The notes under the pieces: model-generated | Databases searched by the model: none | Told to the model about the DNA's origin: nothing | The model's input: the letters and a program-made list of their open reading frames with translations, nothing else | DNA from: Candidatus Rifleibacteriota bacterium | Lineage (GTDB): Bacteria; Muiribacteriota; Ozemobacteria; Ozemobacterales; Ozemobacteraceae | NCBI GenBank assembly: GCA_051747585.1 | Contig: JBNJGH010000053.1 | Span: forward strand, 1-22,396 | Length of the DNA stretch: 22,396 nucleotides | Reading direction: 5' to 3' | Part shown: positions 1,106 to 22,174 of the stretch, in pieces | Layout of the letters: every line of letters starts with the position of its first letter | Numbering within the stretch: position 1 is the stretch's first letter | Program-made: the position numbers and the translations under genes

Positions 1106-1107
1106 AA

Positions 1108-2169: not shown

Positions 2170-2173
2170 GCGG

Positions 2174-2731: not shown

Positions 2732-2746
2732 TTTAAAGGAGCTGAC

Positions 2747-3328: not shown

Positions 3329-3352
3329 ACCTATAGCAAGGAATTAAAGAGG

Positions 3353-5310: not shown

Positions 5311-5331
5311 ACTGTTAAGCGGTCATACCCT

Positions 5332-5347
5332 GAGGAGACGAGGAGAC
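5332..5347 (+). repeat. Perfect 8-bp tandem duplication (GAGGAGAC x2) containing the Shine-Dalgarno sequence
   Basis: gaggagac at 5332-5339 and 5340-5347, ending 1 nt before ATG 5349. Confidence 0.7.
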
Positions 5348-5348
5348 A

Positions 5349-7916
5349 ATGAACCGCTTTAAATTTTACTCTTTTTCAGCATTATTTTTACTTTTTTTTA
5401 TCGGTCTGAGCTCAGTGCTTTGCGCTCAATCATCTCAGGCACGCAAATTTAATCACGATGGCTTAACAGCAATTAGCGGCGGCCATCATCGCGAAGCCAT
5501 TCAAAACCTGAAAAAGGCGATGCAACTTGAGCCTGATTGGGCCGAGCCATATTTCAATGCCGCCAAGCTTCTTCGACTTCGCAACAAACCGGTTGAAATG
5601 AAAAAAGCTCTGCGCAAAGCTTACAATCTTGAACCCGACAATCCCAAATACGCAGAAGCTTATGCCAAAGCTTTAAAAAATGAGCTGAAAAGGCTTGTAA
5701 AAGCTGGAAAAAAATCCGAAGCAGACAAAATTCGCGCAGAAATTATAAAGGTTAACCCTGCTGAAGTGGCTATTGGTATTCAGATTTTTGATAAACTGGT
5801 AGCAGAAAATAAACTCGAACAAGCAACAGAGCTCGGAAAAAAGATTATCGACGAGAACCCGAAGCTTAGAACCAGATACAACTCTGAACCAATGGGTGAG
5901 TTATATTACAATCTTGCCCGGGTTGAAATGTCCAGAAATAATCTTGTTGCTGCCAAGAACTATGCAACAAATGCCACGAAATATACATTTGGAGTGTCCG
6001 GACAGATCAAGGGCCTGCTCAAAGAAATCGACGAGAAGCAGGACGAGGCTATTGGCGTTTTATTGCAACAAGCCAACGAACAAAAAAGAGTCGGTAATAC
6101 TCAGGAAGCCATTTCAACTCTAAAACGAGCGCTCGAAATCAATCCTTACAGCAACCAGGTCAAATCTGAGTTATCCAAAATTGTCAGTAAAGATGAAGCC
6201 CGAGGCGCACTTGAAGAAGCAAAAGAAATGATCGCTAACGGAAGCTGGCTTTCTGCAAGAGATATGCTTGAATATGTTATTTCTGCCAACCCGGAAAATA
6301 AAGAAGCAGAAAAGCTGCTTGAAAAAGCTGTCGCCAAAGAAGAAGATCTTATGAAAACACTGGGCAGAGCTACCAGATTACCAAGGTCATCGTCCGATCG
6401 TGCCAGCTTGGTAGAGGGATATTTAAGCAAAGGCACCAGATTTTCAGATGCAGGCAATTACAAAGATGCCAGTCTTTCTTTTAGACGTGGGCTTGCCATA
6501 ATAGAACTTGACAACAACCTAAATCATTATAAATCTGCCTTCGAAAAAGAAATGGCTAAAATCAATAAAATAGATAGACGCAAAGAATACTGGCAAAAGG
6601 CAATTGAAGCAAGAAATGCCTATGATTACGAAGAAAGTTTGAAATACCTTGAAAAGCTGCCTAAAAATTACAATATTCAGCTTCCAAGTTATCTTGCTGA
6701 AGCATACTGGAAAATTGGCAATACAGAAGAAGCACTTTCCAATGCCCGTTATCAATTAACCAAACAGCCGGACAACAATCGCGCAAAGTTTGTTCTTGGT
6801 TCGATACTTGATGAACAAGGCGAAACAGAACAAGCCTTCAATTATTATAATGAAATCTACCAGACTGATCCCGGATACCCTGGAATTAAAGATAAACTTT
6901 TAAAAACCAGCTCCTCAAAATGGAAAAGATATCTCCCGCTTGTTGTAATCGCTCTGTTATTATGGATAGCTTATGCCCTTTACAAGCATCTTCCTGAATA
7001 CAATAAGAATACATCTATTAAACGAGCTCGAACTTATCTTAAAAAAGAAATGCTCAAGGAATGTATTGACGAACTTAATAAAATCAAAAGACTGCCAATT
7101 TTAACTCCTTTTGACGGAGCTTTGATTTCCAGAATTCTCGCACAGGCTTATTTAAAAAAAGGCGTATACAGTAAAGCCATTGGCGAATGCAAGCACCTTA
7201 TCTCAATTAACCAGAATGATGAAGATGCTCACACCTGGCTTGGTTATGCCTACCTCGGAAGTCAAATGGTTTCTCCCGAAAGCCTGCCAGAACTTTTGCG
7301 TTTGTATAAAAAAGACAGCCGCAATATAGCCCTGGTATCCCTGTTGGGGTCTCACTATACTAAACAACAAAATCTTTCGCAGGATGGAGTCAAAATACTT
7401 GAACAATGGCTCAACCTTGACCCAAATAACCCGGAAGTACTTAAACCACTTGGAAGATATTACCTCAAAAAAGGTCGCAGCGATGAAAAAGCAATTAAAG
7501 TTTTCCAACGCATGATGGAGCATGGCTCACCCGAACCTGAATTTCTGATCGGTGTTGCACGAATTCATTTGAAGCTGAGACAGTTTGACGAATGTCTGCA
7601 ACTTTGTGAACAGGTTATAAACGCCGATGTAAACAATGAATATGTGCATCAGGTATTGCTTGAAGCCTATCATAAACAAAACAAGCTCGACGACCTGTTG
7701 GCAATCTACAAAAATTTCCTTCAGAACAACCCTTACAATGTTGCTTTCCAAAACGGCCTGCGAGAAGCGCAAAAAGTTGTTGAATCAATTAATTCTTCTG
7801 TAGCTCCGGCTTCAAATGAGCAGCCCGCAAACAATCAGGTTTTATGCCCGCATTGCCAGACAATTAACAGTACAGAAGAATATTACTGCCAGAATTGTGG
7901 GCAAAGCCTAAGTTGA
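5349..7916 (+). CDS. Bitopic TPR protein: signal peptide, periplasmic TPRs, single TM, cytoplasmic TPRs, C-terminal zinc ribbon
   Basis: N-terminal signal peptide (..SSVLCA|Q). Many TPR-like units (KKAMQLEPDWAEPYFN, KRALEINPYS, KQPDNNRAKFVLG). TM YLPLVVIALLLWIAYALY (~6930-6985). C-terminal CPHC-x10-CQNC. Confidence 0.8.
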   Translation: MNRFKFYSFSALFLLFFIGLSSVLCAQSSQARKFNHDGLTAISGGHHREAIQNLKKAMQLEPDWAEPYFNAAKLLRLRNKPVEMKKALRKAYNLEPDNPKYAEAYAKALKNELKRLVKAGKKSEADKIRAEIIKVNPAEVAIGIQIFDKLVAENKLEQATELGKKIIDENPKLRTRYNSEPMGELYYNLARVEMSRNNLVAAKNYATNATKYTFGVSGQIKGLLKEIDEKQDEAIGVLLQQANEQKRVGNTQEAISTLKRALEINPYSNQVKSELSKIVSKDEARGALEEAKEMIANGSWLSARDMLEYVISANPENKEAEKLLEKAVAKEEDLMKTLGRATRLPRSSSDRASLVEGYLSKGTRFSDAGNYKDASLSFRRGLAIIELDNNLNHYKSAFEKEMAKINKIDRRKEYWQKAIEARNAYDYEESLKYLEKLPKNYNIQLPSYLAEAYWKIGNTEEALSNARYQLTKQPDNNRAKFVLGSILDEQGETEQAFNYYNEIYQTDPGYPGIKDKLLKTSSSKWKRYLPLVVIALLLWIAYALYKHLPEYNKNTSIKRARTYLKKEMLKECIDELNKIKRLPILTPFDGALISRILAQAYLKKGVYSKAIGECKHLISINQNDEDAHTWLGYAYLGSQMVSPESLPELLRLYKKDSRNIALVSLLGSHYTKQQNLSQDGVKILEQWLNLDPNNPEVLKPLGRYYLKKGRSDEKAIKVFQRMMEHGSPEPEFLIGVARIHLKLRQFDECLQLCEQVINADVNNEYVHQVLLEAYHKQNKLDDLLAIYKNFLQNNPYNVAFQNGLREAQKVVESINSSVAPASNEQPANNQVLCPHCQTINSTEEYYCQNCGQSLS

Positions 7917-7928
7917 GAAAGGTTTCGA

Positions 7929-10900
7929 TTGCTGATTAGAAGACAGGCAAACCAAAAAAAATTACACCGGAAATGGAGACTGGCTTCATTTCTTATATTT
8001 GTATTCTCTTTGTTTGGAAGCCAAGTTTTTGCTCTCAACCAGGATTACGCAACTTTAAGAAAATTTCTTTCAGCACGCATGTATGGCGAAGCCTACATGG
8101 AGCTCCTTAAACAGGAAGTAGCCGAAGATGAATTTGACCCAAAATTACTTAAACTCAGAAAAGATCTGCTCACACCTACCAAAAAGCGTCTGCTTAAGCA
8201 GGCTGAAATTAATCCTGATGACCCTGCAATCTTTACTATTTTGGCAGACATTTGTTTTCATCAAGGCAGACTTGACGCTGCTGCCCGTTATGCAACCAAA
8301 TCCCTGGCCAATAATTCAGGGGCAATGGCAAACTATGTATTTGCCAAAATCCTTTTCCGAAAAGGAAACATAAACCAGGCTTTCGACCAGATGGGGATAG
8401 CTATCGAAAGCATGACTCAATCCCCGGTTGTTTTTGCAGACTTTCAGTTTCTTTATTCCTGCAAAAGCTACGGCGTGGAAACCGCAAAAAAAATTGTTCA
8501 AAACACCAATTTTTTAAAAAGAGCAAAACCTATTGCCGGTGACGATAAGATAGTTGAGGCTCCAGAAAGCCCCTTTGTTAATGACCCAACCCAACCTCCA
8601 ACGCCAATAGAACCCGATGAACCCTCCAGTGTCGAAATAACCGACATCAACGATATCGATGATGCCGATTTGCCCCCGGATGAGCCTGAGGATCAGTCTA
8701 CCGATGCCCAGCCCGACATGGATGAGCTTCCCGACTTACCTGAAATTGATACAGACCCCACAACAGACTTAACTGACCGCCCAATGCCTTTTGCTCATGG
8801 GAACGAGGATCCCTCAACAGATCCTGCACCTGAACCCGAACCAACTGAAATAGAAGAAGATCCCGAAAATGAAAAAATAAAAAAAGCCGAATACTGGCTT
8901 GACCAGGCCGTTAAACAATTTAACCGCCATAATTACAATGATTCCAAACTCAACCTTGAAAAAGCTGTTTCATTATATCCCGGCGTACGCGGGAAAGATG
9001 AGTTAAAAGAAAAACTCGAAGCGAAGTTCGACCTTTTCAAACGCTATAAAAAAGCCCTTAACCTTTATGAGCTTGAAAAATATGAAGAGGCTCTGCCAAT
9101 AATACAAGAAGCATACGAACAAGAGCCACAAAAATACCCTGAGGCCCCATTTTATATTGGCAAAATATACTTGCTCAAAGATAATCCTGATTTGCAGAAA
9201 GCTCTGAAAAGCCTTGATGTCGTTCTTAAAGAAAAAGATCTCGATCCCCTGCTTAAGCGCGATATTGAATGGACAAAACTTGAAATACTATTTGAACTTG
9301 AACGCTTCGAAGAAGCTGATAAGCTTTTTAATAATTTCGAAAAAAATGAAATCGATTATGCTAAAAATCAAGCAGATTTTAATAAATTAAAATATCTGAT
9401 TTTTTACAACCTCCATAAACTATGGATCCACATCGGACTGGGTATTTTCGCCACCCTCTTTTTAATTGTTTTTCTGCTCCGTTTATTGCCAGCAATCACC
9501 TTAGCATTCCTTAAAGCAGAAAACATGGCCAGAAGAGCTTTTGGCAAGAAAAATTACCAGAAAGCCTGCTCTATGGCAGAAAAAGCCCTCAGCAAGAAAT
9601 TGCCGGTACAAATAGAGCGCGAAATGCTCGAGATTTGTTCCAAGGCAAATTTTCATCTTAAAAATTACGTTAAGTGCCAGGATTATTCTAAAGAGCTGCT
9701 CGAAAGGTTTGCCGACAACCCCGTGGGTTGGAATTATCTTGCCAGGGCATCAATTGCATGCAATGACACCTCTTCTGAGGCTATTGCCATGTATGAAACT
9801 ATTTATCGAGAAAATCCCGAAAACACAGAATATCTTAAAATTCTTGCCAAACACTACGCCGAAACCCGTAACTATACGGTCGAATCCATGGAGATTCTTT
9901 TTACCTATTACCAGACCGGCATAGAAGATCCTCAAATCACGCTCGCACTGGCTGAAGGTTACTGCCAAAACCGAACCATGGGCAATGAAGTTATTACGGT
10001 AATTGAGGAAGCCTTGAAAATAGAGGATAGACTCGAATTTCGCGAACTATTAGCGAGAAACTATGCCAAGGCCGGAAGATATGCCGATGCTGCCCGAGAA
10101 TGTCTCAAGGTTCTCGATGAAAATCTTAACAACATGGGAATCCACGTTGTCTACAGCTCTTCAATGAAAAAGCTGAATATGCTTGAGGAAGCCATTGAAC
10201 AATACGAAAATTTTCTGGAAAGATCACCCGACGACCCACAATTAATTGAAATACTCAATGGCCTGAAAAAAGATGCTGAAAGGATGGCCGACGAACCAGA
10301 ATCGCCTGAATCAGAACTCCCGGAAATTGAAACCCTTGATCAGGATCTGCCAATGCCCGACCTGCCCTCGGAAACTGAAGAAAACAAGGAAGTTAATAGC
10401 GACGATGTCGATATAGAAGGCTTTGTCGAACCTCCACCCGAAGGTTTTGAAGAAGAAAACAAAAAAGAATCCGAAATTCCCGTACCAGATTTTCTTAAAG
10501 AAGAATACTCTGAGAATGAAGAAGAACCGGCTTCAGAGAAACAAACCGAAAATAGCAGGAAAAACGAAGAAAATATTTCCGGCATGGCCATGGATCCCAC
10601 AGAGCTGCCAGAGCTTGATCCATTCGCAGACCCCGACTCTCTGCTTGATGAATTTGCCACTGAGCTTCCTGAAGAACTCGGAGGAGCCGCTTCTCCTGAA
10701 AAGCAGCAACCAGAAGGTCTTGACAGTCTTGACGATTTTGAAAGCGATCAACAGAGCGAACTACCCGAACCTCAAACTGCCAGCCACAACCATGACAACC
10801 AGAATGATTCCGAATTTTTTAACCAGCTTTCAAAAGCAAGAGAGCTTTCAGGTCAGAAAAAATGGAATGATGTAATTGAAATACTAAGCCCGGTCTATGC

Positions 10901-11180
10901 TTCGGAACGACATAAAGATGTGGGTTTGCTTCTAATCAATGCCTATATCGAAACCAGGCAACCTCTTCTGGCCAAAGAAATTATAGATACTCTTGATATA
11001 GACATTGAGCTTATGAGCGAAGATACAAAAGATATTCTTTATCGTACAGGAATTGCGCTTGAAAAAGCAAAACTTACAGATGAAGCCCTGCTGATTTTTG
11101 ATATGATCTGCAATGTTGATATTAACTACAGAGACGCATTCGACAGGTCAGACAAACTGTATAATCTCAAAAAATCTTAA
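7929..11180 (+). CDS. Large bitopic TPR protein with two acidic/Pro-rich disordered regions and a C-terminal TPR module
   Basis: TTG start after GAAAGG. Signal peptide (..SQVFA|L), TPRs, D/E/P-rich linker (~8560-8870), TM LWIHIGLGIFATLFLIVFLL (~9420-9480), cytoplasmic TPRs, second acidic tract (~10280-10820), terminal TPR (LYRTGIALEK...DINYRD). Confidence 0.8.
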   Translation: MLIRRQANQKKLHRKWRLASFLIFVFSLFGSQVFALNQDYATLRKFLSARMYGEAYMELLKQEVAEDEFDPKLLKLRKDLLTPTKKRLLKQAEINPDDPAIFTILADICFHQGRLDAAARYATKSLANNSGAMANYVFAKILFRKGNINQAFDQMGIAIESMTQSPVVFADFQFLYSCKSYGVETAKKIVQNTNFLKRAKPIAGDDKIVEAPESPFVNDPTQPPTPIEPDEPSSVEITDINDIDDADLPPDEPEDQSTDAQPDMDELPDLPEIDTDPTTDLTDRPMPFAHGNEDPSTDPAPEPEPTEIEEDPENEKIKKAEYWLDQAVKQFNRHNYNDSKLNLEKAVSLYPGVRGKDELKEKLEAKFDLFKRYKKALNLYELEKYEEALPIIQEAYEQEPQKYPEAPFYIGKIYLLKDNPDLQKALKSLDVVLKEKDLDPLLKRDIEWTKLEILFELERFEEADKLFNNFEKNEIDYAKNQADFNKLKYLIFYNLHKLWIHIGLGIFATLFLIVFLLRLLPAITLAFLKAENMARRAFGKKNYQKACSMAEKALSKKLPVQIEREMLEICSKANFHLKNYVKCQDYSKELLERFADNPVGWNYLARASIACNDTSSEAIAMYETIYRENPENTEYLKILAKHYAETRNYTVESMEILFTYYQTGIEDPQITLALAEGYCQNRTMGNEVITVIEEALKIEDRLEFRELLARNYAKAGRYADAARECLKVLDENLNNMGIHVVYSSSMKKLNMLEEAIEQYENFLERSPDDPQLIEILNGLKKDAERMADEPESPESELPEIETLDQDLPMPDLPSETEENKEVNSDDVDIEGFVEPPPEGFEEENKKESEIPVPDFLKEEYSENEEEPASEKQTENSRKNEENISGMAMDPTELPELDPFADPDSLLDEFATELPEELGGAASPEKQQPEGLDSLDDFESDQQSELPEPQTASHNHDNQNDSEFFNQLSKARELSGQKKWNDVIEILSPVYASERHKDVGLLLINAYIETRQPLLAKEIIDTLDIDIELMSEDTKDILYRTGIALEKAKLTDEALLIFDMICNVDINYRDAFDRSDKLYNLKKS

Positions 11181-11758
11181 AACCGGCCAAATAGAAATTC
11201 AGCCTCTAACATAAGACCTTCTATTTTTACACCTGTTGTTTTGGCAAACGTATAGCCAGTCGAAAATTCCAGAACTATATGGCGGGACAAGGGCAAAACT
11301 CCAACTATTACCGGCTCAATGAAAGCAAATGAGCCCGAGTTCAATTCGCGACCGGATGCCGAGGTCTTTAAATTATATTCTCCAACGCCAAAACTCGCAC
11401 GCCATTTTACCCTGGCATCTTCTCTGAATGAATCTTCAAGGGTTAATCCGCCCATTTCCATATCAAATTCTAGACTGGTTCCATTTAAAGTCCCGGCCCG
11501 ATACATAAGCCCGATTGCCGGATCTCTCAATCTTCCCGCAAAAGCTCTAATACCCCATAAATTTGTGTCTCCACCAAAATCATGAGGTCCAGAAACTTTT
11601 TTATAGGTTATTGTTGGCCCAATGCCCATTGTATACTCATGACCATCAGGATTTTTATCCATAAGCAGGGTCGGACCAATAGCAGCGTTAGATGGAAAAG
11701 CAACAATATTTATAAAAATTATCAATATTAATGACACATAAAGTTTTTTCATCAACAT
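11177..11758 (-). CDS. Small outer-membrane beta-barrel-like protein
   Basis: Signal peptide MKKLYVSLILIIFINIVAFPSNA (the true start may be ATG 11752). Gly/aromatic-rich alternating strands (VKWRASFGVG, IVLEFSTGYTF). Ends in Phe (LEAEFLFGRF), like a BAM beta-signal. Confidence 0.62.
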   Translation of the reverse strand: MLMKKLYVSLILIIFINIVAFPSNAAIGPTLLMDKNPDGHEYTMGIGPTITYKKVSGPHDFGGDTNLWGIRAFAGRLRDPAIGLMYRAGTLNGTSLEFDMEMGGLTLEDSFREDARVKWRASFGVGEYNLKTSASGRELNSGSFAFIEPVIVGVLPLSRHIVLEFSTGYTFAKTTGVKIEGLMLEAEFLFGRF

Positions 11759-11788: not shown

Positions 11789-11957
11789 TCAGATGCTCCG
11801 CCGGGCTTGTCGGTTTATTAGAACTATGAATAGCAGCCTGTTTTTGTTATCATATTGAAAATGCAAACTAAATCGAAAAAAGGTTGCTTTGCCCGGAAAA
11901 AAATCGTTATTATAAATAGTCTTTAAAGTAGTTATTTTGAGCCATCGGCGCATCTGA
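11789..11957. repeat. Imperfect ~18-bp inverted repeat pair bracketing the divergent promoter region
   Basis: Left 11789-11807 tcagatgctccgccgggct. Reverse complement of right 11940-11957 is tcagatgcgccgatggct. 8-bp perfect core, 15 aligned identities. Confidence 0.5.
11884..11913 (+). promoter_or_regulatory. Candidate sigma70-type promoter for the SBP-OmpA/pspA/ABC/AAA operon
   Basis: TTGCTT (11884-11889), 18-nt spacer, TATTAT (11908-11913), with A-tracts upstream. Strong SD AGGAGG at 11968-11973 before GTG 11979. Confidence 0.4.
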
Positions 11958-11978
11958 CAATCATAGCAGGAGGATATT

Positions 11979-13772
11979 GTGAGCAACGATCTAGGCCCTA
12001 CGCCACTAGGCAAATTCATTATGTTTGTCTTCATAATCGGCTGTATTCTTGCAGCCGCCGTTTCATTTTCACCGGATCTGAGGAACAAATTGTTTCCATC
12101 AGGTTCTGATAAATCAGGACAAAACATACAAAATCAGGGAAAAACCCAGCAACAGGCTTCATCTAGTCAATCTTCCGGGACAGGCAATCAATCCCCTCCA
12201 AAAATAAAGGTGGAAGCCCCCGATTCATCAGGCGTTGTTACAAGCGTAAAAGAATATTCTTATGTACCCCGCGAAGCATTACCCCCGGTAAAAGGAGTTT
12301 CCGGTTACAAATGGGATAAAAACGAAAAAATTGTCGTTTTTCCAATAAATGTCTGGTATGGATGGCTACCTATTATTGCTGCCAATCATGGCTTTGCCCC
12401 TAACGAAGAAAGCGTTTTCTTTAAAAAATATGGGTTTAAAGTCGATCTAAAGCTTATCGATGACCCGGTAACTGCCCGCGATTCTTTTGCTTCCGGCGAA
12501 TCCCATATTTTATGGGGAACCCTTGATATGATAGCCCTTTTTGCCCCCAGTCTCATGAAAGACAGTCGAACTTCTCCGAGAATTTTTCAGCAGGTTGACT
12601 GGTCCAGTGGCGGCGATGGTGTGGTCGTCAGAGGCAATATCAGATCAATAAAAGACCTTAAAGGCAAAACGATTGTTTATGCCCAGAACAGCCCTTCACA
12701 GTATTTTATTACCAATCTGCTTTTGAATGCCAACATTCCATTAAATGAAGTTAATCATAAATATACCTCTACAGCCTTTGAAGCTGCAGCTGCATTCGTA
12801 TCAGATGATAGCATTCATGCTTGTGTAAGCTGGGCACCCGACATTTACACTATTCCCGAAAAACTTGCCGGCACAAGGATTCTGACCACCACAGCCGACG
12901 CGAACCGCCTGATAACAGACGTATGGGCCGCCCGAGCCGACTTTGCCAAAGACCACCCTGAAATAATCAAAGGCCTGGTTGCCGGTATTTTTGAAGGCAT
13001 GAGTATGCTCAAAAACAAAACTCAGAAAATTAAAGCATTTCAATGGATGGCTGAAGGCTATGGGATGAAATTAGATGACGTTAAATCTATGGAAGCTGAT
13101 GCCTATCCAACTAACTTTGCAGAAAATAAAAACTTTTTCCTAAATAAAAATAATCCGACCAATTTTGAGCGAACCTGGAAAAATATTATCTTTGTTTACC
13201 GGGAACTGGGGCTGATAGGCACTCCGGTAAGGTTCGATCAAGTCGTTGATTTCTCTGTCATCAAAGAACTTTCAACTAAAAATATGTTCCCGGACCAAAA
13301 AAGCCTTCAGGTTAACAGATTTGTTTCAACCAGCTATAAGAAGGTCTCCGCCGAAGCTCCGGTTTTGACTCAGACTATCAGAATAAATTTTTATCCGAAC
13401 TCGGCAAATGTTTATGAGCCTGAGCATGATGAATTTGGCCAACCAATACCGAACTCTCTCTATGACCCATCAGTAGATTCTACCCTGGAAAAAATAGCAC
13501 GCATGGTTGGCCAATATGAGAGAGCAACCGTTGCAATCGTTGGGCACACAGACAGCTCAATGAGGGGCAAGGTTCCGGAAAAAGCTGTTAAAGATCTTTC
13601 TTATGATCGTGCCGAAGCGGTTAAAAACGCTCTTATAAGAAAATATAACTTCCCCAAAGATAAATTTGTAGTAACCGGCAAAGGCTGGGATGACCCGGCC
13701 GATCCAAGCGACCCCTTGAATCAAACTCTTAACCGAAGAGTCGAGATTCAGGTCTTTACCCCCGAAAGATAA
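11979..13772 (+). CDS. Membrane-anchored ABC substrate-binding protein (NMT1/SsuA-like) fused to a C-terminal OmpA-like peptidoglycan-binding domain
   Basis: N-terminal hydrophobic anchor plus Q/S/G-rich linker. SBP motifs INVWYGWLP, DWSSGGDG, IKDLKGKTI, VSWAP. OmpA_C motifs INFYPNS, IVGHTDS, LSYDRAEAVK, NRRVEI. Confidence 0.85.
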   Translation: MSNDLGPTPLGKFIMFVFIIGCILAAAVSFSPDLRNKLFPSGSDKSGQNIQNQGKTQQQASSSQSSGTGNQSPPKIKVEAPDSSGVVTSVKEYSYVPREALPPVKGVSGYKWDKNEKIVVFPINVWYGWLPIIAANHGFAPNEESVFFKKYGFKVDLKLIDDPVTARDSFASGESHILWGTLDMIALFAPSLMKDSRTSPRIFQQVDWSSGGDGVVVRGNIRSIKDLKGKTIVYAQNSPSQYFITNLLLNANIPLNEVNHKYTSTAFEAAAAFVSDDSIHACVSWAPDIYTIPEKLAGTRILTTTADANRLITDVWAARADFAKDHPEIIKGLVAGIFEGMSMLKNKTQKIKAFQWMAEGYGMKLDDVKSMEADAYPTNFAENKNFFLNKNNPTNFERTWKNIIFVYRELGLIGTPVRFDQVVDFSVIKELSTKNMFPDQKSLQVNRFVSTSYKKVSAEAPVLTQTIRINFYPNSANVYEPEHDEFGQPIPNSLYDPSVDSTLEKIARMVGQYERATVAIVGHTDSSMRGKVPEKAVKDLSYDRAEAVKNALIRKYNFPKDKFVVTGKGWDDPADPSDPLNQTLNRRVEIQVFTPER

Positions 13773-13792
13773 GTCTCAAAGGAGTTTGAAAA

Positions 13793-14542
13793 ATGTTCGA
13801 AAGAATTAAAAATTTAATTCGTGGATTTTTCAGTCTGTTTATCAAAGGACTGGAATCAGAAAACCCCGAAGCACTAATCGAAGCTGAAAAGCAGAATTTG
13901 CGCAATCAGATTTCCAGATTTAACGAAAATCTGGCAAATCACGCAGCTTTCACTGAAAGACTTATGCGCCAGATCAAAACACTTAACTCTAAAGAAAAGC
14001 AACTTTCCGCCAAAATTAACGCCAACATCAAAGCAGGCAATAAAAGAGTTGCCGGGCAACTTGCCCTTCAGCTTCAAACTGTAAAGAACCAACTTGATGA
14101 AAACCAGCAACAGCTTGAAATTGCTGAAAAGACGTTTCAAGACCTCGAACGTTCCAGAAACGTTGCTGTTCGCGAAGCTCAGGCCAAGATTGAAAAACTT
14201 CAAGCGCTTGTCAGTGAAACTGAGATGCTCGAAGCCCAGGCAGAATTACAGGAAATGGCGAAAGGAATGGTAGGAGGTATTGGCGGAAGCGGCGACACCA
14301 TAAGCCGAGTAACCGAACTGGTGAATGAACGTCGCGATAAAGCTGCAGGAAAAGCCCGCGTTGCCTCTGGTTCTTACGACAACTCCTCTATTGAAATAAA
14401 AGAAAATGAACAGGAAGCTCTGGGCGATGCCGCCCTGGCTGAATTTATGGCCATGAATGACATGGAGACCACAGTAACCCCTGAAGACGTCGAATCTGAG
14501 CCTGTCCCCGAACGCGGAATGGGCCCAATCGAAAAGAATTAA
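13793..14542 (+). CDS. pspA: PspA/IM30 (Vipp1, ESCRT-III superfamily) protein
   Basis: 249 aa. N-terminal amphipathic helix MFERIKNLIRGFFSLFIKGL followed by ENPEALIE (cf. PspA EDP..L), long coiled-coil hairpin, KAAGKARVA segment and terminal helix DAALAEF. SD AAAGGAG. Confidence 0.85.
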   Translation: MFERIKNLIRGFFSLFIKGLESENPEALIEAEKQNLRNQISRFNENLANHAAFTERLMRQIKTLNSKEKQLSAKINANIKAGNKRVAGQLALQLQTVKNQLDENQQQLEIAEKTFQDLERSRNVAVREAQAKIEKLQALVSETEMLEAQAELQEMAKGMVGGIGGSGDTISRVTELVNERRDKAAGKARVASGSYDNSSIEIKENEQEALGDAALAEFMAMNDMETTVTPEDVESEPVPERGMGPIEKN

Positions 14543-14556
14543 TAAGCGGAGGATAT

Positions 14557-16209
14557 ATGAACAATTATTTTAAAATTATCTGTTTGTTTTCAGTTTTTGC
14601 ACTTTTTGCATCCAACGGCTCTCTTCTTGCCGAAGAAAATATTCAGGTGGAAGCGCCTGATGCAAACTCGGTTACTACTGCAAAAGAATACAAATTTGTC
14701 CCCAGAGAAACCCTGCCGGCAGTTCAAGGCACCTCAGGTTATAAATGGGATGAAAAAGAAAAAATCGTTGTTTTTCCAATCAACGTATGGGCCGGATGGC
14801 TGCCTATTATTGCCGCCAACCATGGCTTTGCCCCTAACGAAGAAAGTGTTTTCTTTAAAAAATATGGTTTTAAAGTAGACCTTAAACTTATTGATGACCC
14901 TGTGGCAGCCCGCGACTCTTATGCTTCGGGAAACAGCCATGTTTTATGGGGCACCCTTGATATGATCGCTCTTTTTGCCCCTGGATTAATGAGAGACAGC
15001 CGCACCGCACCTCGAGTTTATCAACAAATTGACTGGTCAAGTGGTGGCGACGGAATTGTATGCAGAACTAAGATCAAAGACGTGGCAGACCTTAAAGGCA
15101 AAACGATTGCTTATGCGCAAAACAGCCCGTCTCAATATTTTGTCAGCAACCTGCTTATTAACGCAGGCATAGGTCTGGACGAAGTTGAACATAAATATAC
15201 CTCTACTGCTTTTGAAGCCGCTGCAGCTTTTGTTTCAAATCCGGAAATTGATGCCTGCGTAAGCTGGGCACCAGATATTTATACAATTCCCGAAAAAGTA
15301 GCCGGCACAAAAATTCTAACAACCACAGAAGAAGCAAACAAACTCATTGCAGATGTGTGGGCGGTAAGAGCCGACTTTGCCCGCGACAAACCTGAAATAG
15401 TAAAAGGCCTGGTTGCAGGTATTTTTGAAGGCATGGATATGCTTGACAATAAAACAAAAAAATCCAAAGCCTTTCAGTGGATGGCTGACGGATATGGAAT
15501 GACAATCGAAGATGTTAAAGCCATGGAAGCCGATGCCCATTCAACAAACTTTGCCGAAAACAAAGAATTTTTTCTCAATGCCAATAATCCGACGAACTTT
15601 GAACGTACCTGGGAAAACATCTGTTTCATTTATCACCAGGCCGGCCTCATAAAAGATCCGGTACCTTTTAACCAGGTAATGGATTTCAGTATAATCAAGG
15701 ATCTTGAAAAAGACGGCAAATTCAAACATCACAAAGATAAATATGTAAGTAAATTTGTTCCTACTTCTTATAAAAAGGTTAATGCCGAAGCTCCGATTAT
15801 TACTCAGACAGTTAGAATAAATTTCTATCCAAACTCCGCAAATATTTACGAACCTGCACATGATGAAGCTGGAGTTCCCATACCGAACACACTCTATGAC
15901 CCGAATGTTAATGCAACCATGGAAAAAGTAGGACGCCTGGTAGGCTCTTATGACCGCGCAGTTGTCGCAATAGTAGGACATACCGACAGCTCGATGAAAG
16001 GAAAAATCCCTGAAAAAATTGTTAAAGACCTTAGTTTGGCACGCGCAAAAGCCGTAAAACGGGCCTTGATCGAACAATTCAAATTTGATCCAAAAAAATT
16101 CGTAGTCGAAGGAGCCGGCTGGGACAAACCTGCAGATCCGGCAAGTCCACTTAATCAGGCATTGAACCGCAGAGTTGAAATCTCGGTATATCCACCTGAA
16201 AGCAATTAA
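14557..16209 (+). CDS. Second, soluble (cleavable signal peptide) substrate-binding protein/OmpA-domain fusion; paralog of 11979-13772
   Basis: Signal peptide ..GSLLA|EE. Collinear with the first copy over its whole mature length (INVWAGWLP, DWSSGGDG, IVGHTDS, LSLARAKAVK, NRRVEI). SD GGAGG. Confidence 0.85.
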   Translation: MNNYFKIICLFSVFALFASNGSLLAEENIQVEAPDANSVTTAKEYKFVPRETLPAVQGTSGYKWDEKEKIVVFPINVWAGWLPIIAANHGFAPNEESVFFKKYGFKVDLKLIDDPVAARDSYASGNSHVLWGTLDMIALFAPGLMRDSRTAPRVYQQIDWSSGGDGIVCRTKIKDVADLKGKTIAYAQNSPSQYFVSNLLINAGIGLDEVEHKYTSTAFEAAAAFVSNPEIDACVSWAPDIYTIPEKVAGTKILTTTEEANKLIADVWAVRADFARDKPEIVKGLVAGIFEGMDMLDNKTKKSKAFQWMADGYGMTIEDVKAMEADAHSTNFAENKEFFLNANNPTNFERTWENICFIYHQAGLIKDPVPFNQVMDFSIIKDLEKDGKFKHHKDKYVSKFVPTSYKKVNAEAPIITQTVRINFYPNSANIYEPAHDEAGVPIPNTLYDPNVNATMEKVGRLVGSYDRAVVAIVGHTDSSMKGKIPEKIVKDLSLARAKAVKRALIEQFKFDPKKFVVEGAGWDKPADPASPLNQALNRRVEISVYPPESN

Positions 16210-16219
16210 TAACAAATCT

Positions 16220-16239
16220 GGTGGGCCTTCGGGCCCACC
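16220..16239 (+). promoter_or_regulatory. GC-rich intercistronic hairpin with a C(UUCG)G tetraloop (mRNA stabiliser or partial terminator)
   Basis: GGTGGGCC-TTCG-GGCCCACC is a perfect 8-bp stem between the SBP gene and the permease. No U-tract on the + strand. Confidence 0.7.
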
Positions 16240-16257
16240 GAGTCTTAGGGATAAGTA

Positions 16258-17484
16258 ATGCTACAAAGTCTCTGCAAAAATATTTTTGCCATAAGAATTC
16301 CGGTGAAAACCACTGAAAAAATAGTGCTGGGTTTGATTCCCATTATACTTATATTTTTTCTCTGGGTTGCTGTTACCACTGGGCGCAAGGAAATAATAAC
16401 TCTGCCCACCGGAACTTTTGCAGGTTATGAAGAATCAATGCCGGAATTTGGAACATCTTTTCCCGATGGTGTTCGCTACACAATAGACGATGCAGAAATC
16501 AAATATATTTCCAAGAATGATAAATCCGTCACTCTACTGATTAAAGACGACAAAAAATACGATGTAACTTTTTGTGGCATTAGATCCATGGGAAATTCTA
16601 TCAGACTAACCCTTGACCCCGGTGTCCTTGTTCCTGCTCCTGAAGGAGTAAAAGCTTCTCAGGCAAAAGAGTCTGAAGAGCAGACATCTGCCGGAACAGT
16701 AGATCTATCCGCAGATAGCCAGAGCAGACCAGCTACAGAAGAGACCGCGACTCCGTCAAATTATAAGAATATTGCCTACCGATACGAGGTAGTAGAGTCC
16801 AGAATTTTCTCGCCCACCACCCTTCCCAGTCCAAGGGAGACCTTCAGATCCTTACCCCAACTCTGGACCCAGCGCAAACTTCTGACAAACATTCTTTACA
16901 GTTTTCTCAGAGTTGGCGCAGGTTTTCTGGTAGCATTTGTTATTGTTTTCCCAATATCGCTTTTAATGGGAACTTTCACCAAATTTAAAGCTTTCTTTTC
17001 TCCGCTGATGCTTTTTGGTGCCTATCTGCCAATTCCGGCTCTAGTGCCTCTTACTATGGTCTTTTTCGGAACAAACGAAGAACAAAAGGTAATGTTTCTT
17101 GCCCTTGGTTTTGCGATTTACCTGCTTCCATTATTTGTTCAAGCCCTTGAAGAGGTAGATAACGTTTATTTACAAACCGGCTATACTTTGGGGGCAACAA
17201 AATTTCAGATTTTGAATAAAATTATGCTCCCTATAGCTTTGCCGAAAATTTATGATGCAATGCGCCTCGGCTTTGGCATAGGCTGGGGTTATATTATTCT
17301 GGCTGAAATGGTCGACATGGGTAGCAAAGGCGTAGGCGCATTAATTCTCATAAGTCAGAGAAGAGGCCCGCGCGAAGATATTTACTTAGTTTTGATCGCA
17401 ATTGTTATTATGGCTTTTATAACTGACAAAATCTGGGAAAAAATCGGAGACCGACTATTCCCTTACAGGAGTCAGGAAAGATGA
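16258..17484 (+). CDS. ABC transporter permease, SsuC/TauC/NitT type, with a large extracytoplasmic insertion
   Basis: LPSP motif, SFLRVGAGF, LPIPALVPL, EAA-like loop YLQTGYTLGAT..ILNKIMLPIALP, GWGYIILAEM. 408 aa because of ~140 extra residues after TM1. Confidence 0.9.
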   Translation: MLQSLCKNIFAIRIPVKTTEKIVLGLIPIILIFFLWVAVTTGRKEIITLPTGTFAGYEESMPEFGTSFPDGVRYTIDDAEIKYISKNDKSVTLLIKDDKKYDVTFCGIRSMGNSIRLTLDPGVLVPAPEGVKASQAKESEEQTSAGTVDLSADSQSRPATEETATPSNYKNIAYRYEVVESRIFSPTTLPSPRETFRSLPQLWTQRKLLTNILYSFLRVGAGFLVAFVIVFPISLLMGTFTKFKAFFSPLMLFGAYLPIPALVPLTMVFFGTNEEQKVMFLALGFAIYLLPLFVQALEEVDNVYLQTGYTLGATKFQILNKIMLPIALPKIYDAMRLGFGIGWGYIILAEMVDMGSKGVGALILISQRRGPREDIYLVLIAIVIMAFITDKIWEKIGDRLFPYRSQER

Positions 17485-18608
17485 CTAAACAGCAGAAAAA
17501 ACAAAGTTTCTGGCAAAAATTTATCGGTCTTTTTTATCATCTTCCGGAAAATAAAAATGCCACCAAATGCCCGCCAAACCTTAATGCCCAGCCAACTAAC
17601 CCTGAAGCAATAAAACCTGCAGACAAAGAAGAAATCATGCGACCTGACTCAGCTGGAAATGATCAAGTGCGTCTGGATGAGAAAAAAGAAAAACAGCATT
17701 CTATTCAGCAACAACAGAAAACTTTTACAAGTGAAACGGGCCTGATTCATTGCCCCCCTATCGCCGACAAAAGAGAATTTGCCCCCGTTGTTTCGTTTAA
17801 AAATGTTACCAAGATTTTTAATCAGGGCACTGATAACGAATTCGTAGCTCTCGACAACGTATCATTCGAAATTGAAGATCTGCCAGATGTTGGTGAATTT
17901 ATAGCTCTTATCGGACCTTCAGGCTGCGGCAAATCAACCGTATTGAATCTCATTCAAGGATTCCAGGAAGTCGGCCCTCCGACTGAAGGCGAAATTCTGG
18001 TAAGAAATCGACCCGTAACCGGACCGGGGCGCGATCGGGGTATGATTTTTCAAAAATACAGTTCTTTTCCCCATCTTACAGTTTTAGAAAACGTAAAATT
18101 CGGACTTGAATTGAACCGAAAGAGCCTGGGTTTTTCTGATAGAACTATGACTCAGCTTGCAATGGATATGATAACTAAAGTCGGCCTTTATGGTCACGAA
18201 GACAAGTATCCTTATCAACTCTCGGGTGGCCAGCAACAAAGAGTGGCAATAGCACGCACCCTGGTTCTCAAGCCCAGAATAATTTTTATGGATGAGCCAT
18301 TTTCTGCCCTTGACGAGCCGACCCGAATCGAAATGCAGCAACTCATAACCGACCTGTGGAACAGAGTTGAAGCAACAGTATTCATTATTACTCACTCTTT
18401 GGCAGAAGCTTTATATTTGAGCGATCGCATTTTCATGTTTACCCATTCCCCCGGTCGGCTCAACAAACAAATTCTCATTCCTCCCGAAGCCATTGGCAAA
18501 ACAGCTGACAAATCGCCATTGGAGGTTCAGGAAGGACCAAAGTTCAAAGCAGCTCTTAAAGAAATAACCGATGAATTTATAAAAATTGGTGGAATAAATA
18601 CAAAATGA
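17481..18608 (+). CDS. ABC transporter ATP-binding protein, SsuB/TauB/NitT type, with a ~100-aa N-terminal extension
   Basis: Walker A GPSGCGKST, Q-loop MIFQ, signature LSGGQ, Walker B FMDEPFSALD, H-loop ITH. ATGA overlap with the permease. Confidence 0.93.
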   Translation: MTKQQKKQSFWQKFIGLFYHLPENKNATKCPPNLNAQPTNPEAIKPADKEEIMRPDSAGNDQVRLDEKKEKQHSIQQQQKTFTSETGLIHCPPIADKREFAPVVSFKNVTKIFNQGTDNEFVALDNVSFEIEDLPDVGEFIALIGPSGCGKSTVLNLIQGFQEVGPPTEGEILVRNRPVTGPGRDRGMIFQKYSSFPHLTVLENVKFGLELNRKSLGFSDRTMTQLAMDMITKVGLYGHEDKYPYQLSGGQQQRVAIARTLVLKPRIIFMDEPFSALDEPTRIEMQQLITDLWNRVEATVFIITHSLAEALYLSDRIFMFTHSPGRLNKQILIPPEAIGKTADKSPLEVQEGPKFKAALKEITDEFIKIGGINTK

Positions 18609-19507
18609 TAAAAAAGAAATTCCAACCTGGTTTTTCAGATTATTTAAGCGAAGCCTTTAATGCAGGTCTCGACATAAAAGGCATGGGCGAAATTCCTGTG
18701 AATAAGCTCTTTATTCTCGGCACTTTTATTCTCGGATTCAGTAATCCGGGCTTCTGGTTCGCCGGCGCAGCGCTTGAAATAATCTATCTTTATTATCTTT
18801 CAACCAACCCCCGCTTTCAAAAATACGTTCAATCCAGGCAATATGAACAGGTTCAAAAAACCAGAAACGATAAGATGCAGCAAATTGTATCTTCACTTGA
18901 ACCGCCGCTGCAATCACGGCTTAGCAAACTTAACAGCAACATTGCTGAAATTAACAAACTCATGGACTGGAATCTTGATGAAACCTCAAGCTTTTTAAAC
19001 AAAAGCAAGCAAGACACCCTTAATCATCTACCTACAATTTTTCTCAAACTGCTAAAAACCAAGCAACTGATTCAAGAAAGCCTTGCCCGAACCAAATCCT
19101 CTCAAATTCATAAAGAGCTTAACCAACTCAAGCAACAGCTCAAAACAGAATCTCTCAGTCCGGCACTCGAAAAATCTTTAAAAAGTAATATAGAAATTCA
19201 ACATAAAAGGCTCGAGAACCTTACCAATGCCCATGAAAACGAAATGCTGGTCGAAATGGAATTACAGCGCATTGAGAGTCAACTCTCATTGGTCAGAGAA
19301 GAAATCGCTCTTGACAGCAGTCCGGAAGGCCTCTCGTCAAATATCGACAAAATCAACTCAACCCTCGGCGAAACTCAGGATTGGCTCAATACTCATTCAG
19401 ACTTTTTGCGAAAACTAAGTGGGCCACCAATTGATGATTTTGAATCCGCTGACATAAATGAGCCCTTAACCAACACTCCGCCACCACAAAAAGAACTAGA
19501 ACGATAA
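18605..19507 (+). CDS. Uncharacterised membrane protein: N-terminal two-TM hairpin followed by a long coiled-coil/helical bundle
   Basis: Hydrophobic LFILGTFILGF-SNPG-FWFAGAALEIIYLYYL, then ~200 aa of heptad-rich Q/K/E/L sequence and an acidic Pro-rich tail. ATGA overlap with the ABC ATPase. Confidence 0.75.
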   Translation: MIKKKFQPGFSDYLSEAFNAGLDIKGMGEIPVNKLFILGTFILGFSNPGFWFAGAALEIIYLYYLSTNPRFQKYVQSRQYEQVQKTRNDKMQQIVSSLEPPLQSRLSKLNSNIAEINKLMDWNLDETSSFLNKSKQDTLNHLPTIFLKLLKTKQLIQESLARTKSSQIHKELNQLKQQLKTESLSPALEKSLKSNIEIQHKRLENLTNAHENEMLVEMELQRIESQLSLVREEIALDSSPEGLSSNIDKINSTLGETQDWLNTHSDFLRKLSGPPIDDFESADINEPLTNTPPPQKELER

Positions 19508-19518
19508 GGATTTGTATC

Positions 19519-21312
19519 ATGGCTAATTATCCAGATTGGGCCAGAGAAATGGCCGAAATTTTTAAAAGTGGCTCCATAAGCCAATTCCTTTTATATGGTA
19601 ATATCGATGACTGGGTAAGCTTCAAATCAGAGCAGCAAAATCAACTGGAATGCCTGTCATTAAAAGATTTTTTGTCCAACATAATGTTTGCTCCCTTCGA
19701 AGTTGTTCTGTGCTATGATCGCGGTCATGGCATACGAACCACCAAAGGCGGAGAAATCTTTTTCAATTTTCTAAAAGCCTATGACAGTTTTCATCATACC
19801 GGATTATCTATGGGGCATAGTGGACACAAAGCAATTGCTTCTGCGAATGCTTTGCCCAAAGATCCCAAACGTGCTCTGGCCATTATTGACCGTTTCATTC
19901 GCTATGGCCTTAACCGCACTACCATAGATAAAGAAGGAAATAAAAAATCTAATCCGATTAGAATTGCAGTTATTGTAGAATATGCACAATATCTGCTGCC
20001 TAGATCAGACATAGCCTATACCAGCTCAGAATCCGTGGAAACCCTTATCAGAATGCTCGACTGGGCTTCTGACCCTAATATTAACAATGCATACGTCACT
20101 ACATGTCTGATAGCAGAAAATCTCAACGATATGAACCGCCAGATAGTAGAAAATCCTCGTTCTGCTAAAATTCAGATCGATCTGCCTGATGCAGAGCAGG
20201 TTTTTAATTTCGTCCAGGCAATTACAGCCAATATAGAAAATTTTAGTGAATTTTGCGATGTTGACCGGGAATCTCTGGCACAAAAGCTTGAGGGACTTTC
20301 CTGCATCGATGTTCAAAACCTCATAGAACGTGCAGTAAAAAACAATCGCCGAATCACCATGGACTATCTGCGCGAAGTAAAAAAAGAAATGATAGAGAAG
20401 TCGGCAAGTGGTCGCATTGTCTTTGTCGAATCGACCAGAACTCTCGACGCCGTTGCCGGTCACCGAGAAGCCAAAGCCTGGTTGCGACAAGATGCCCAAC
20501 TAATGAAAAAAGGCAAATTAAAAGCTCTGCCCATGGGCTATCTCATAACCGGACGTATAGGAACAGGTAAAACCTACCTTGTTGAATGTTTTGCCGGTGA
20601 AGCCGGCGTTCCCTGTGTCGAACTGAAAAATTTTCGCGACAAATGGGTTGGCGCAACCGAAGGCAACCTCGAAACTATTTTTAAAATTCTACATGCAATG
20701 GGTCAGGTAATTGTCTTTATCGATGAAGCCGACCAGGTAGCCGGGAAGCGCGGCGCAGGTTCAGGAGACTCAGGCGTTTCAGGCAGAATTTATGCAATGC
20801 TCGCCAGAGAAATGGCCGACACTAAAAACCGCGGACGCATCTTCTGGATTTTTGCTACCTCCAGGCCCGACCTGCTTGAAGTCGATCTCAAACGTGTAGG
20901 CCGTCTCGATGTTCACATTCCTCTTTTTGCACCACAGACCGCCCAGGATAAAAAAGACCTTTTTGCTGCTCTGGCCCGCAAAAATAATATAGAAGTTAAG
21001 CCCAAAGATATTCCCGACTTTCCCGAAGACTTAGATATTGGCGGAAATGAAATGGAAGGCATTCTTATCATGGCTTCGCGCCAATATGAGCTTCAATCAG
21101 ACGAACCTGATGCAAAAGAAATCGGCCACTTTATAAATGAAGCAATGAAAACTTACAGGCCAATGAGCCATTCAGAGCGTCTTGAATACATGGACCTGGC
21201 AGCAGTGATAGAATGCACTGACCAGAGGTTTCTGCCAAAAAAATTCAGCGAGCTGGAGAGCGGTCAGGTAAAACAAAGAATGGAACAGTTAAAACTCGAG
21301 CTCGGCGAATGA
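19519..21312 (+). CDS. Tandem classical-clade AAA+ ATPase (degenerate N-terminal module, intact C-terminal module)
   Basis: C-module: Walker A GRIGTGKT (20551-20574), pore loop KWVGATEGN, Walker B VFIDEAD, sensor-1 region ATSRP, Arg finger LKRVGRLD. N-module: degenerate LLYGNIDD and VIVEYAQ at Walker-equivalent positions. Confidence 0.88.
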   Translation: MANYPDWAREMAEIFKSGSISQFLLYGNIDDWVSFKSEQQNQLECLSLKDFLSNIMFAPFEVVLCYDRGHGIRTTKGGEIFFNFLKAYDSFHHTGLSMGHSGHKAIASANALPKDPKRALAIIDRFIRYGLNRTTIDKEGNKKSNPIRIAVIVEYAQYLLPRSDIAYTSSESVETLIRMLDWASDPNINNAYVTTCLIAENLNDMNRQIVENPRSAKIQIDLPDAEQVFNFVQAITANIENFSEFCDVDRESLAQKLEGLSCIDVQNLIERAVKNNRRITMDYLREVKKEMIEKSASGRIVFVESTRTLDAVAGHREAKAWLRQDAQLMKKGKLKALPMGYLITGRIGTGKTYLVECFAGEAGVPCVELKNFRDKWVGATEGNLETIFKILHAMGQVIVFIDEADQVAGKRGAGSGDSGVSGRIYAMLAREMADTKNRGRIFWIFATSRPDLLEVDLKRVGRLDVHIPLFAPQTAQDKKDLFAALARKNNIEVKPKDIPDFPEDLDIGGNEMEGILIMASRQYELQSDEPDAKEIGHFINEAMKTYRPMSHSERLEYMDLAAVIECTDQRFLPKKFSELESGQVKQRMEQLKLELGE

Positions 21313-21566: not shown

Positions 21567-21860
21567 TCAGGCATTTAATAAAGCCTGGCTGATTGCTTCC
21601 GGGTTGGTCTGAGCGATTTTCAGCAGAACCATTGCCGGGCCTTCCGGTTTCCTTCGGCCCTGTTCCCAGTTTCTTAAAGTGGCAACGCTTATGCCGATCA
21701 TCAGCGCGAATTCCTGTTGAGTCTTCTGAAGTTTTTGTCTGATTTGCTTCACATCAAGCGGAGTTATCTCAAAGACTCTGCTTGGTTTCTTTTTCCCGCG
21801 CCGAATCTTTCCGGCTTCCTTGATGCTGGTCACCAGATTGTTAAAGTCACTGTCTTTCAT
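21567..21860 (-). CDS. higA: HigA2/NadS-like Cro/C1 HTH antitoxin
   Basis: N-terminal FNNLVTSIKEA helix, then DVKQIRQKL..TQQEFALMIGISVATLRNWEQGRRKPEGPA..LL typical of HigA2-type antitoxins. ATGA overlap with the upstream toxin. Confidence 0.88.
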   Translation of the reverse strand: MKDSDFNNLVTSIKEAGKIRRGKKKPSRVFEITPLDVKQIRQKLQKTQQEFALMIGISVATLRNWEQGRRKPEGPAMVLLKIAQTNPEAISQALLNA

Positions 21861-22174
21861 TTGAGTTCCTCCTCTACCAGCTTGCTCAAGATTTTGAGCT
21901 GATCGCGGGTTAAATCTTCCTGGCGATTTTTTGCATAAGCATAAAGCATGTAAATGGCTTCCATTTCTTTATACCAGTAATAGATAATTCTGCTTCCGCC
22001 GCGTTTGCCTTTCTGCCCTGATTTCCAACGCAGTTTTCGTAAGCCCCCGCTGCCCTTGATAATATTACCGGCAACCGGACATCTGATCATCGCATTCTAA
22101 AGATCTTTGTAATCATCATCAGACAGAAGCTTGGTAATGAAAGCGGTAAAAACAGAAGTTTCTATGATTTCCAT
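21857..22174 (-). pseudogene. higB: HigB2/RelE-family toxin gene interrupted by an in-frame TAG at codon 26
   Basis: From ATG 22174 it reads MEIIETSVFTAFITKLLSDDDYKDL*NAMIRCPVAGNIIKGSGGLRKLRW...GKRGGSRIIYY...YAKNRQEDL. TAG is at 22099-22097. The 77-aa ORF in the track is only the downstream fragment. Confidence 0.85.

Follow-up and report, generated by a model that had tools for sequence, protein, structure and literature searches.

A PspA–AAA+ pair with a conserved C-terminal PspA tag at the core of a seven-gene operon in Candidatus Rifleibacteriota

Introduction

PspA was placed in the ESCRT-III superfamily in 2021, in a paper that leaves the question of an equivalent ATPase open (PMC8281802). 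A 2025 review describes a Vps4-like ATPase as apparently absent in bacteria (PMC7619361), and a further paper treats a bacterial Vps4 equivalent as absent or open (PMC11746142). The closest description of a candidate comes from Ravi et al. 2024 (PMC11237479), who reported PspA together with a two-domain AAA+ protein having an inactive first domain, and longer operons that add an ATP-binding cassette (ABC) ATPase, a permease, and a PBPB-OmpA protein. They proposed ATP-dependent membrane remodelling tied to solute transport, comparable to Snf7 and Vps4. Here we describe an operon of this kind in a 22,396-nucleotide (nt) stretch of DNA from a Candidatus Rifleibacteriota bacterium (contig JBNJGH010000053.1), which we call the window. 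What is new is that PspA and the AAA+ ATPase constitute the irreducible core of the operon, a pair that can stand alone, and that PspAs of this operon carry a variable C-terminal linker followed by a five-residue [KR]x[MLI]GP tag.

Two known Psp systems offer further points of comparison. The mycobacterial protein PspM holds one species of PspA at the membrane (PMC13622631). As in the mycobacterial ClgR-PspA-PspM system, the operon pairs PspA with a helical protein that is a candidate membrane anchor; unlike that system, it has no regulator gene and no sequence-profile match to PspM, and the mycobacterial system as described is without an AAA or ABC part. The PspFABC system of E. coli likewise ties PspA to a AAA+ protein, but there the partner, PspF, activates transcription and is of the NtrC type; a search for PspC across the source genome of the window (93.6% complete) found none. 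No pspB, pspF, or Lia genes were noted in the window; for these families the rest of the genome was not searched.

Results

Operon organization

The initial annotation had proposed seven co-oriented genes, and the open reading frame (ORF) coordinates bear out all seven along with the six gaps between them (20, 14, 48, -4, -4, and 11 nt in the 5' to 3' direction). The genes encode, in order, binding protein 1, a PspA-family protein of 249 amino acids, binding protein 2, an ABC permease, an ABC ATPase, a 300-amino acid hairpin protein, and a tandem AAA+ ATPase, hereafter AAA. All parts are retained, in the same order, in 12 of the 12 genome loci with sufficient flanking sequence, so that the arrangement is not due to chance and the anticipated co-occurrence in other genomes is confirmed. 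The closest named loci belong mostly to Candidatus Riflebacteria or Ozemobacter.

The operon is a real, widely conserved cluster of a type already described in silico, as the initial annotation had suggested and as PMC11237479 bears out. It has six genes of the Ravi et al. operon, co-oriented and in the same order, and its AAA has two AAA+ domains, the N-terminal of which is inactive. Compared by domain order, the published example OGG56892.1 (PMC11237479, Table S3) has the arrangement seen in the window minus the first binding protein; in the window, by contrast, an anchored copy of the binding protein stands at the head and a signal-peptide copy follows PspA. The 300-amino acid protein corresponds by position to the 'SIG+TM+Snf7' protein of PMC11237479, a Snf7 label that was not reproduced here. 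The accessible text of Ravi et al. mentions no C-terminal tag, and that of PMC9239133 does not mention the operon. No experimental study of the operon was found in the literature searched, which largely leaves out subscription journals.

PspA and AAA can stand alone

Among the relatives of the locus in metagenomes (the best 80 of 546 were analyzed), 17 loci, two of which are duplicates, have wide flanks. PspA accompanies AAA in all 17 of these, the hairpin protein in 15, a binding protein in 14, and the permease in 12. PspA and AAA are the most tightly linked pair, which supports their association as proposed initially. A similar gradation was observed in 46 genomes of the same family, in which AAA was found in 44, PspA in 43, the hairpin protein in 38, a binding protein in 37, and the permease in 36.

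In genus g12, PspA and AAA are adjacent in six of six genomes (78–97% complete), and neither the hairpin protein, nor a binding protein, nor the permease was found in any of the six, a reduction that represents a single evolutionary event. The pair survives alone in this genus, and whatever it does therefore does not require a chain in which the ABC complex acts on PspA by way of the hairpin protein. For this reason, the earlier proposal that the ABC complex and the 300-amino acid protein are needed to position PspA for AAA is not supported, and the proposed wiring of the ABC module to PspA and its proposed ligand find no support either. The natural two-gene form is seen at loci L113–L116, L139, L140, and L026.

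The metagenome loci have two gene orders, and lineages other than that of the window add a von Willebrand factor A (vWA) protein and a second helical protein. Neither was found in the source genome, apart from a weak match to the vWA query (E 4e-4). An unnamed family of 200–250 amino acids occurs just after AAA in L063, L067, L074, L085, and 14 more loci; it lies mostly between AAA and PspA in the second gene order and was not found in the source genome.

A distant sister system with the same parts list is present in G001–G005 (loci L126, L127, L128, and L141–L143). Its AAA is ~25–28% identical to that of the operon, and its PspA-like protein falls below the Pfam cut-off. The order in this system is binding protein-OmpA, vWA protein, anchored binding protein-OmpA, hairpin protein, PspA-like protein, third binding protein, permease, ABC ATPase, and tandem AAA. 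At a limit of 1e-60 these clusters had appeared to be AAA-less, a classification we dropped when a looser search located the distant AAA right after the ABC ATPase.

A conserved tag at the C-terminus of PspA

The 249-amino acid protein matches PspA_IM30 (PF04012) over residues 2–219, spanning model positions 3–215 of 220, with a score of 36 bits that exceeds the cut-off of 33.9 by a narrow margin. It is the sole PF04012 match in the source genome, and we infer its ESCRT-III fold from family membership. Residues 1–18 have the highest hydrophobic moment of the protein (0.63), as expected of an amphipathic N-terminal helix.

Beyond the part covered by the Pfam model, PspA continues with a variable linker (18–27 residues in the 27 sequences measured) and then the [KR]x[MLI]GP tag. 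The tag glycine, G244, is invariant in 102 of 102 aligned PspA sequences. The complete motif occurs in 53 of 55 complete PspAs from the loci, the remaining two deviating at the last residue alone, and in 113 of 120 homologues; of the seven homologues lacking it, two are cut short and five have a motif ending in N or T. In a background set of 1314 ORFs it does not occur at all. All six g12 PspA-AAA pairs carry the tag, and it is retained in two genomes (G020 and G021) in which AAA sits on another contig. It is absent from four stand-alone PspA paralogues (L104–L107) and from the lone PspA of G019, a 96% complete genome in which AAA was not found. In a tree, these five tagless PspAs fall in two separate lineages. 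Three of the four stand-alone paralogues are followed by a protein of 131–139 amino acids belonging to no known family.

The tag is a candidate recruitment motif for AAA and lies C-terminal to the last core helix, where MIM motifs occur in ESCRT-III (PMC8281802). A predicted complex of AAA with PspA residues 198–249 scored 0.32, compared with 0.01 for the best of three controls; contact agreement between runs was at least 73%, and the pLDDT (predicted local distance difference test) of the partner was at least 51. Of 157 solved complexes, 116 reach the mark for such scores, as do 2 of 215 mismatches; those that reach it at scores of 0.60 or below are just 18 of the 157 solved complexes and both mismatches. 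The prediction weakly supports a grip of AAA on the PspA tail.

A p97/Cdc48-like tandem ATPase

Pfam assigns an AAA domain to residues 342–468 of the ATPase. Its structural model (pLDDT 81.5) aligns over residues 5–561 with Rix7 (Z 20.7, root mean square deviation 6.0, 458 aligned residues), confirming the two AAA domains inferred initially. Whole-length alignments were obtained with p97, Cdc48, and Rix7, and the best sequence matches belong to the same group. The first domain retains the fold but has lost the GKT and DE motifs. In the second domain, across 88 locus homologues, Walker A is conserved in 88, the aromatic pore loop in 83, Walker B in 88, and the two arginines (arginine fingers) in 87, the Walker B and pore-loop counts being partly circular, as these words served as search patterns in the metagenomes. 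By its motifs, the second ring appears intact for protein threading and is that of a classical-clade translocase.

Like ESCRT-III with Vps4 or CdvC, the operon places an ESCRT-III-superfamily protein next to a classical AAA+ protein with an aromatic pore loop. Unlike Vps4 and CdvC, however, which combine an MIT domain with a single AAA domain, the operon AAA has no MIT domain and has two AAA domains, its N-terminal half being an alpha/beta AAA-like domain. Vps4 structures align with the second half alone (residues 293–566), and the sequence scores 44 bits against the CdvC model versus 85 against CDC48, both well below cut-off. AAA is p97/Cdc48-like and at most a Vps4 analogue, not an orthologue, and the Vps4 kinship initially suggested is not supported in its strict sense. 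While its whole-length fold is that of p97/Cdc48/VAT, Rix7/NVL, and Pex1/6, it differs from these in lacking an N domain, in having a first ring without nucleotide motifs, and in being just 15–20% identical. It may also resemble Ycf46, a point on which the literature searched offered nothing of use.

Features of the operon, with positions in the window
Feature	Coordinates	Strand	Basis
Sigma-70-like promoter candidate (A-tract, TTG-type hexamer, 18 nt, TATTAT)	11876..11913	+	13/14 aligned upstream regions
Binding protein 1: N-terminal anchor, NMT1/SsuA/TauA-type domain, OmpA-like domain	11979..13772	+	Pfam, hydrophobic segment 13-31
PspA/IM30-family protein, 249 amino acids, amphipathic N-terminal helix and C-terminal extension	13793..14542	+	PF04012
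PspA C-terminal tag, residues 241-245, [KR]x[MLI]GP, candidate AAA recruitment motif	14513..14527	+	Conservation
Binding protein 2: signal-peptide-like N-terminus, NMT1 and OmpA domains	14557..16209	+	Pfam; signal peptide by visual inspection
Intergenic G+C-rich hairpin, binding protein 2/permease	16220..16239	+	Folding energy versus shuffles
ABC permease, TauC/SsuC class, large insertion after first helix	16258..17484	+	BPD_transp_1
ABC ATPase, intact motifs	17481..18608	+	ABC_tran
Membrane-hairpin and helical-bundle protein, 300 amino acids, candidate PspM-like anchor	18605..19507	+	Model, atlas
Classical-clade tandem AAA+ ATPase, degenerate first domain, intact second, no MIT/N domain	19519..21312	+	Pfam, model, motifs

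The hairpin protein

The 300-amino acid protein scores above the cut-off of no Pfam family. Its family is large and unnamed, with 1767 representatives at E ≤ 0.001, and no consistent family emerged when 150 members were scanned against Pfam (6 of the 150 at most). The model (pLDDT 89.9) has a short hydrophobic hairpin followed by a helical bundle built around a long hairpin. The hydrophobic hairpin, formed by helices 32–44 and 48–67, carries an invariant or near-invariant glutamate. Of the two transmembrane segments originally proposed, the hydrophobic hairpin itself is upheld, but with a best 19-residue hydropathy of 1.45 it may not span the membrane twice.

Structural comparison was uninformative as to homology. 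The best fold matches of the model (Z 10.1–11.7) are unrelated helical bundles within the noise range of the tool, Foldseek gave no match at E ≤ 0.001, and no ESCRT-III chain was among the matches listed. BAR-domain and VirB5-like matches were at noise level and were not accepted as homology. In profile comparison the family gave 0.2% against a PspA alignment and, against solved sequences, coiled-coil noise only, the top match being pneumococcal surface protein A, a mere namesake. The nearest Pfam-named atlas cluster is Rv2743c/PspM (0.86; 181–183 of 256 features), a cluster in which the Rv2743c family is assigned to 40% of members. Our best guess is that the hairpin protein is a PspM-like membrane anchor, because PspM holds PspA at the membrane in mycobacteria. 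A weak paralogue lies beside a VIT-vWA protein in L137 (6358–7320), and weak second matches to the hairpin protein occur in six genomes of the same family.

The binding proteins and ABC pair

Both large proteins combine an NMT1-type binding domain with a C-terminal OmpA domain according to Pfam. They are 73.5% identical and form sister clades inside the lineage in a quick tree (SH-aLRT, Shimodaira–Hasegawa-like approximate likelihood ratio test, 96); to judge from this, they are a lineage-specific duplication, which is also all that the repeats in the window reflect. Binding protein 1, preceded by AGGAGG at 11968–11973, retains the anchored N-terminus of those non-Riflebacterial homologues with a readable N-terminus. 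In binding protein 2, the GHTD aspartate D477 and R496, presumably wall-binding residues as in other OmpA-like domains, are invariant in 30 of 30 sequences and align to A. baumannii OmpA 3td3.

The ABC module is of a TauABC/SsuABC-like class, with all NCBIfam models under cut-off, including the best models for the permease (SaoP, TauC, and NtrB). Among 52 locus homologues of the ABC ATPase, Walker A is conserved in 51, the signature in 52, Walker B in 51, and the H-switch in 51. The association of the binding-protein/ABC module with PspA and AAA extends as far as the distant sister system and is therefore old, but it can be lost. In L078, L088, L090, L099, L101, and L102, the binding protein-OmpA fusion belongs to a very divergent clade. 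In L101, this protein lies beside an amine-oxidase-like gene and a vWA gene, with no ABC pair near; L078, L088, L090, L099, and L081 end too early to show loss of the ABC pair.

Expression signals and flanking genes

The candidate promoter upstream of the operon is conserved and sigma-70-like, although a consensus promoter scan did not flag it. The region from 16205 to 16262, containing the G+C-rich hairpin, folds at -19.7 kcal/mol (z -2.3), and 3 of 200 shuffles fold equally well; the hairpin is likely an mRNA-stabilising or attenuating element. No Rfam match, and hence no riboswitch, appeared in the scan. A metatranscriptome with a word share of 0.07 contains six short contigs matching at at least 99%, one of which spans the junction between PspA and binding protein 2. 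These may be DNA carry-over and were not used as evidence of expression.

Upstream, positions 2–11180 hold a type IV pilus or secretion assembly run of a PilB-like ATPase, PilM, PilN, and PilO, after which come a HEAT-repeat protein and two large TPR proteins. Secretin stress is a classic trigger of Psp responses. A secreted-looking protein of 193 amino acids with no family match is encoded on the minus strand at 11177–11758, divergent from the operon, and is kept in 14 related loci. Downstream, on the minus strand at 21567–22174, are a RelE-type toxin gene, interrupted in frame by a stop at codon 26, and then an intact helix-turn-helix antitoxin-like gene (NadS family); relatives carry an RsbW-like kinase gene at this position.

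Discussion

We lean toward the view that AAA is a dedicated PspA-recycling motor that reads a C-terminal tag. From what is known of the families, PspA would bind the inner membrane through its first helix and polymerise, and AAA would form a hexamer that threads polypeptide. AAA would grip the five-residue tag on the flexible tail of PspA and pull subunits out of membrane-bound PspA polymers. Genomic context suggests that the hairpin protein would anchor or localise the PspA-AAA pair, as PspM does in mycobacteria, and that the wall-tethered binding proteins and ABC importer would form an accessory small-solute input module, ancient but dispensable. A bolder form of this proposal, about which we are more doubtful than hopeful, is that AAA is a bacterial Vps4 equivalent that evolved from a p97/Cdc48-type motor, its dead first ring replacing MIT and reading the PspA tag, with the binding protein, ABC pump, and PspM-like anchor directing ESCRT-III cycling.

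Several observations weigh against a tag-reading, PspA-recycling motor. Loss of the tag is seen in two lineages only, and a paralogue released from the operon could lose its tail whichever operon partner that tail binds. One genome (G056) has the full operon but a degenerate PspA tail, and the sister system has AAA without this tag, its four readable tails sharing no single ending. The score of the predicted AAA/PspA-tail complex is at threshold, and the prediction returned no interface. A profile of the 249-amino acid PspA had no match at E ≤ 1 among sequences of solved structures. The connection of the hairpin protein to PspM is a language-model lead below 0.9, and the PF25587 hidden Markov model had no match at E ≤ 10 in the source genome, from three candidates. 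Finally, the gene usually found directly upstream of AAA is that of the hairpin protein, not PspA (it is present in 47 of 51 metagenome loci), and the hairpin protein could be the true substrate or adaptor of AAA.

This last arrangement, with the hairpin gene also present upstream of AAA in 19 of 19 genome loci and in both gene orders, is one argument for the idea that PspA regulates or adapts AAA, whose real substrates would be the hairpin protein, the ABC complex, or damaged membrane proteins extracted as by p97 or Msp1. The PspA-PspF pair of E. coli provides a precedent (PMC7619361), and any binding between PspA and AAA fits this idea equally well. We nevertheless consider it unlikely: AAA persists with PspA in all six g12 genomes, from which the searches recovered neither the hairpin protein nor the binding protein nor the permease, and a tag on a flexible C-terminal linker is more like a substrate handle than a coiled-coil inhibitor. 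Less probable again is that the binding proteins and ABC pair are an ordinary small-solute importer, of the sulfonate, thiamine-precursor, or urea/guanidine class, sharing a promoter with a separate PspA-AAA pair but mechanistically unconnected to it. Its ABC motifs are intact, its best matches are TauA, SsuA, and TIGR03427 (all far below cut-off), g12 has lost the module, and L101 lacks the ABC pair within ~10 kb on each side. Yet the genes stay linked through rearrangement and are linked again in the distant sister system, and in L101 the binding protein adjoins PspA even without the ABC pair. No conserved catabolic enzyme was found among the recurring neighbours scanned, nor any Rfam riboswitch. 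Importers of this kind do not usually carry an OmpA fusion and a membrane anchor, which also counts against this explanation.

The role in phage defence that the initial annotation entertained fares worst. A system directed against phages or toxins, with envelope sensing as the trigger for membrane sealing by PspA or for cell death, would accord with the induction of the PspA family by phage stress (PMC7619361) and with two weak PADLOC matches, between AAA and IetA and between the ABC ATPase and mad3. These matches, however, are limited to generic ATPase cores, and no defence-specific match and no phage match was found. Five plasmid matches are ~28% identical, and the one inspected has no operon genes annotated. 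Inheritance across the family is syntenic: PspA and AAA are present in nearly all of the same-family genomes, in a fixed chromosomal context and with G+C content similar to that of the flanks, and we regard defence as very improbable. The near-universal presence in the family, the fixed context, and the generic nature of the PADLOC matches therefore favor housekeeping, and the operon likely serves the day-to-day maintenance and repair of the envelope.

Specialists familiar with the 2024 survey (PMC11237479) will not be surprised by the operon; the minimal pair and its tag, though, make the question directly testable. The question of a bacterial Vps4-like ATPase is narrowed to a natural two-gene core and a five-residue tag.

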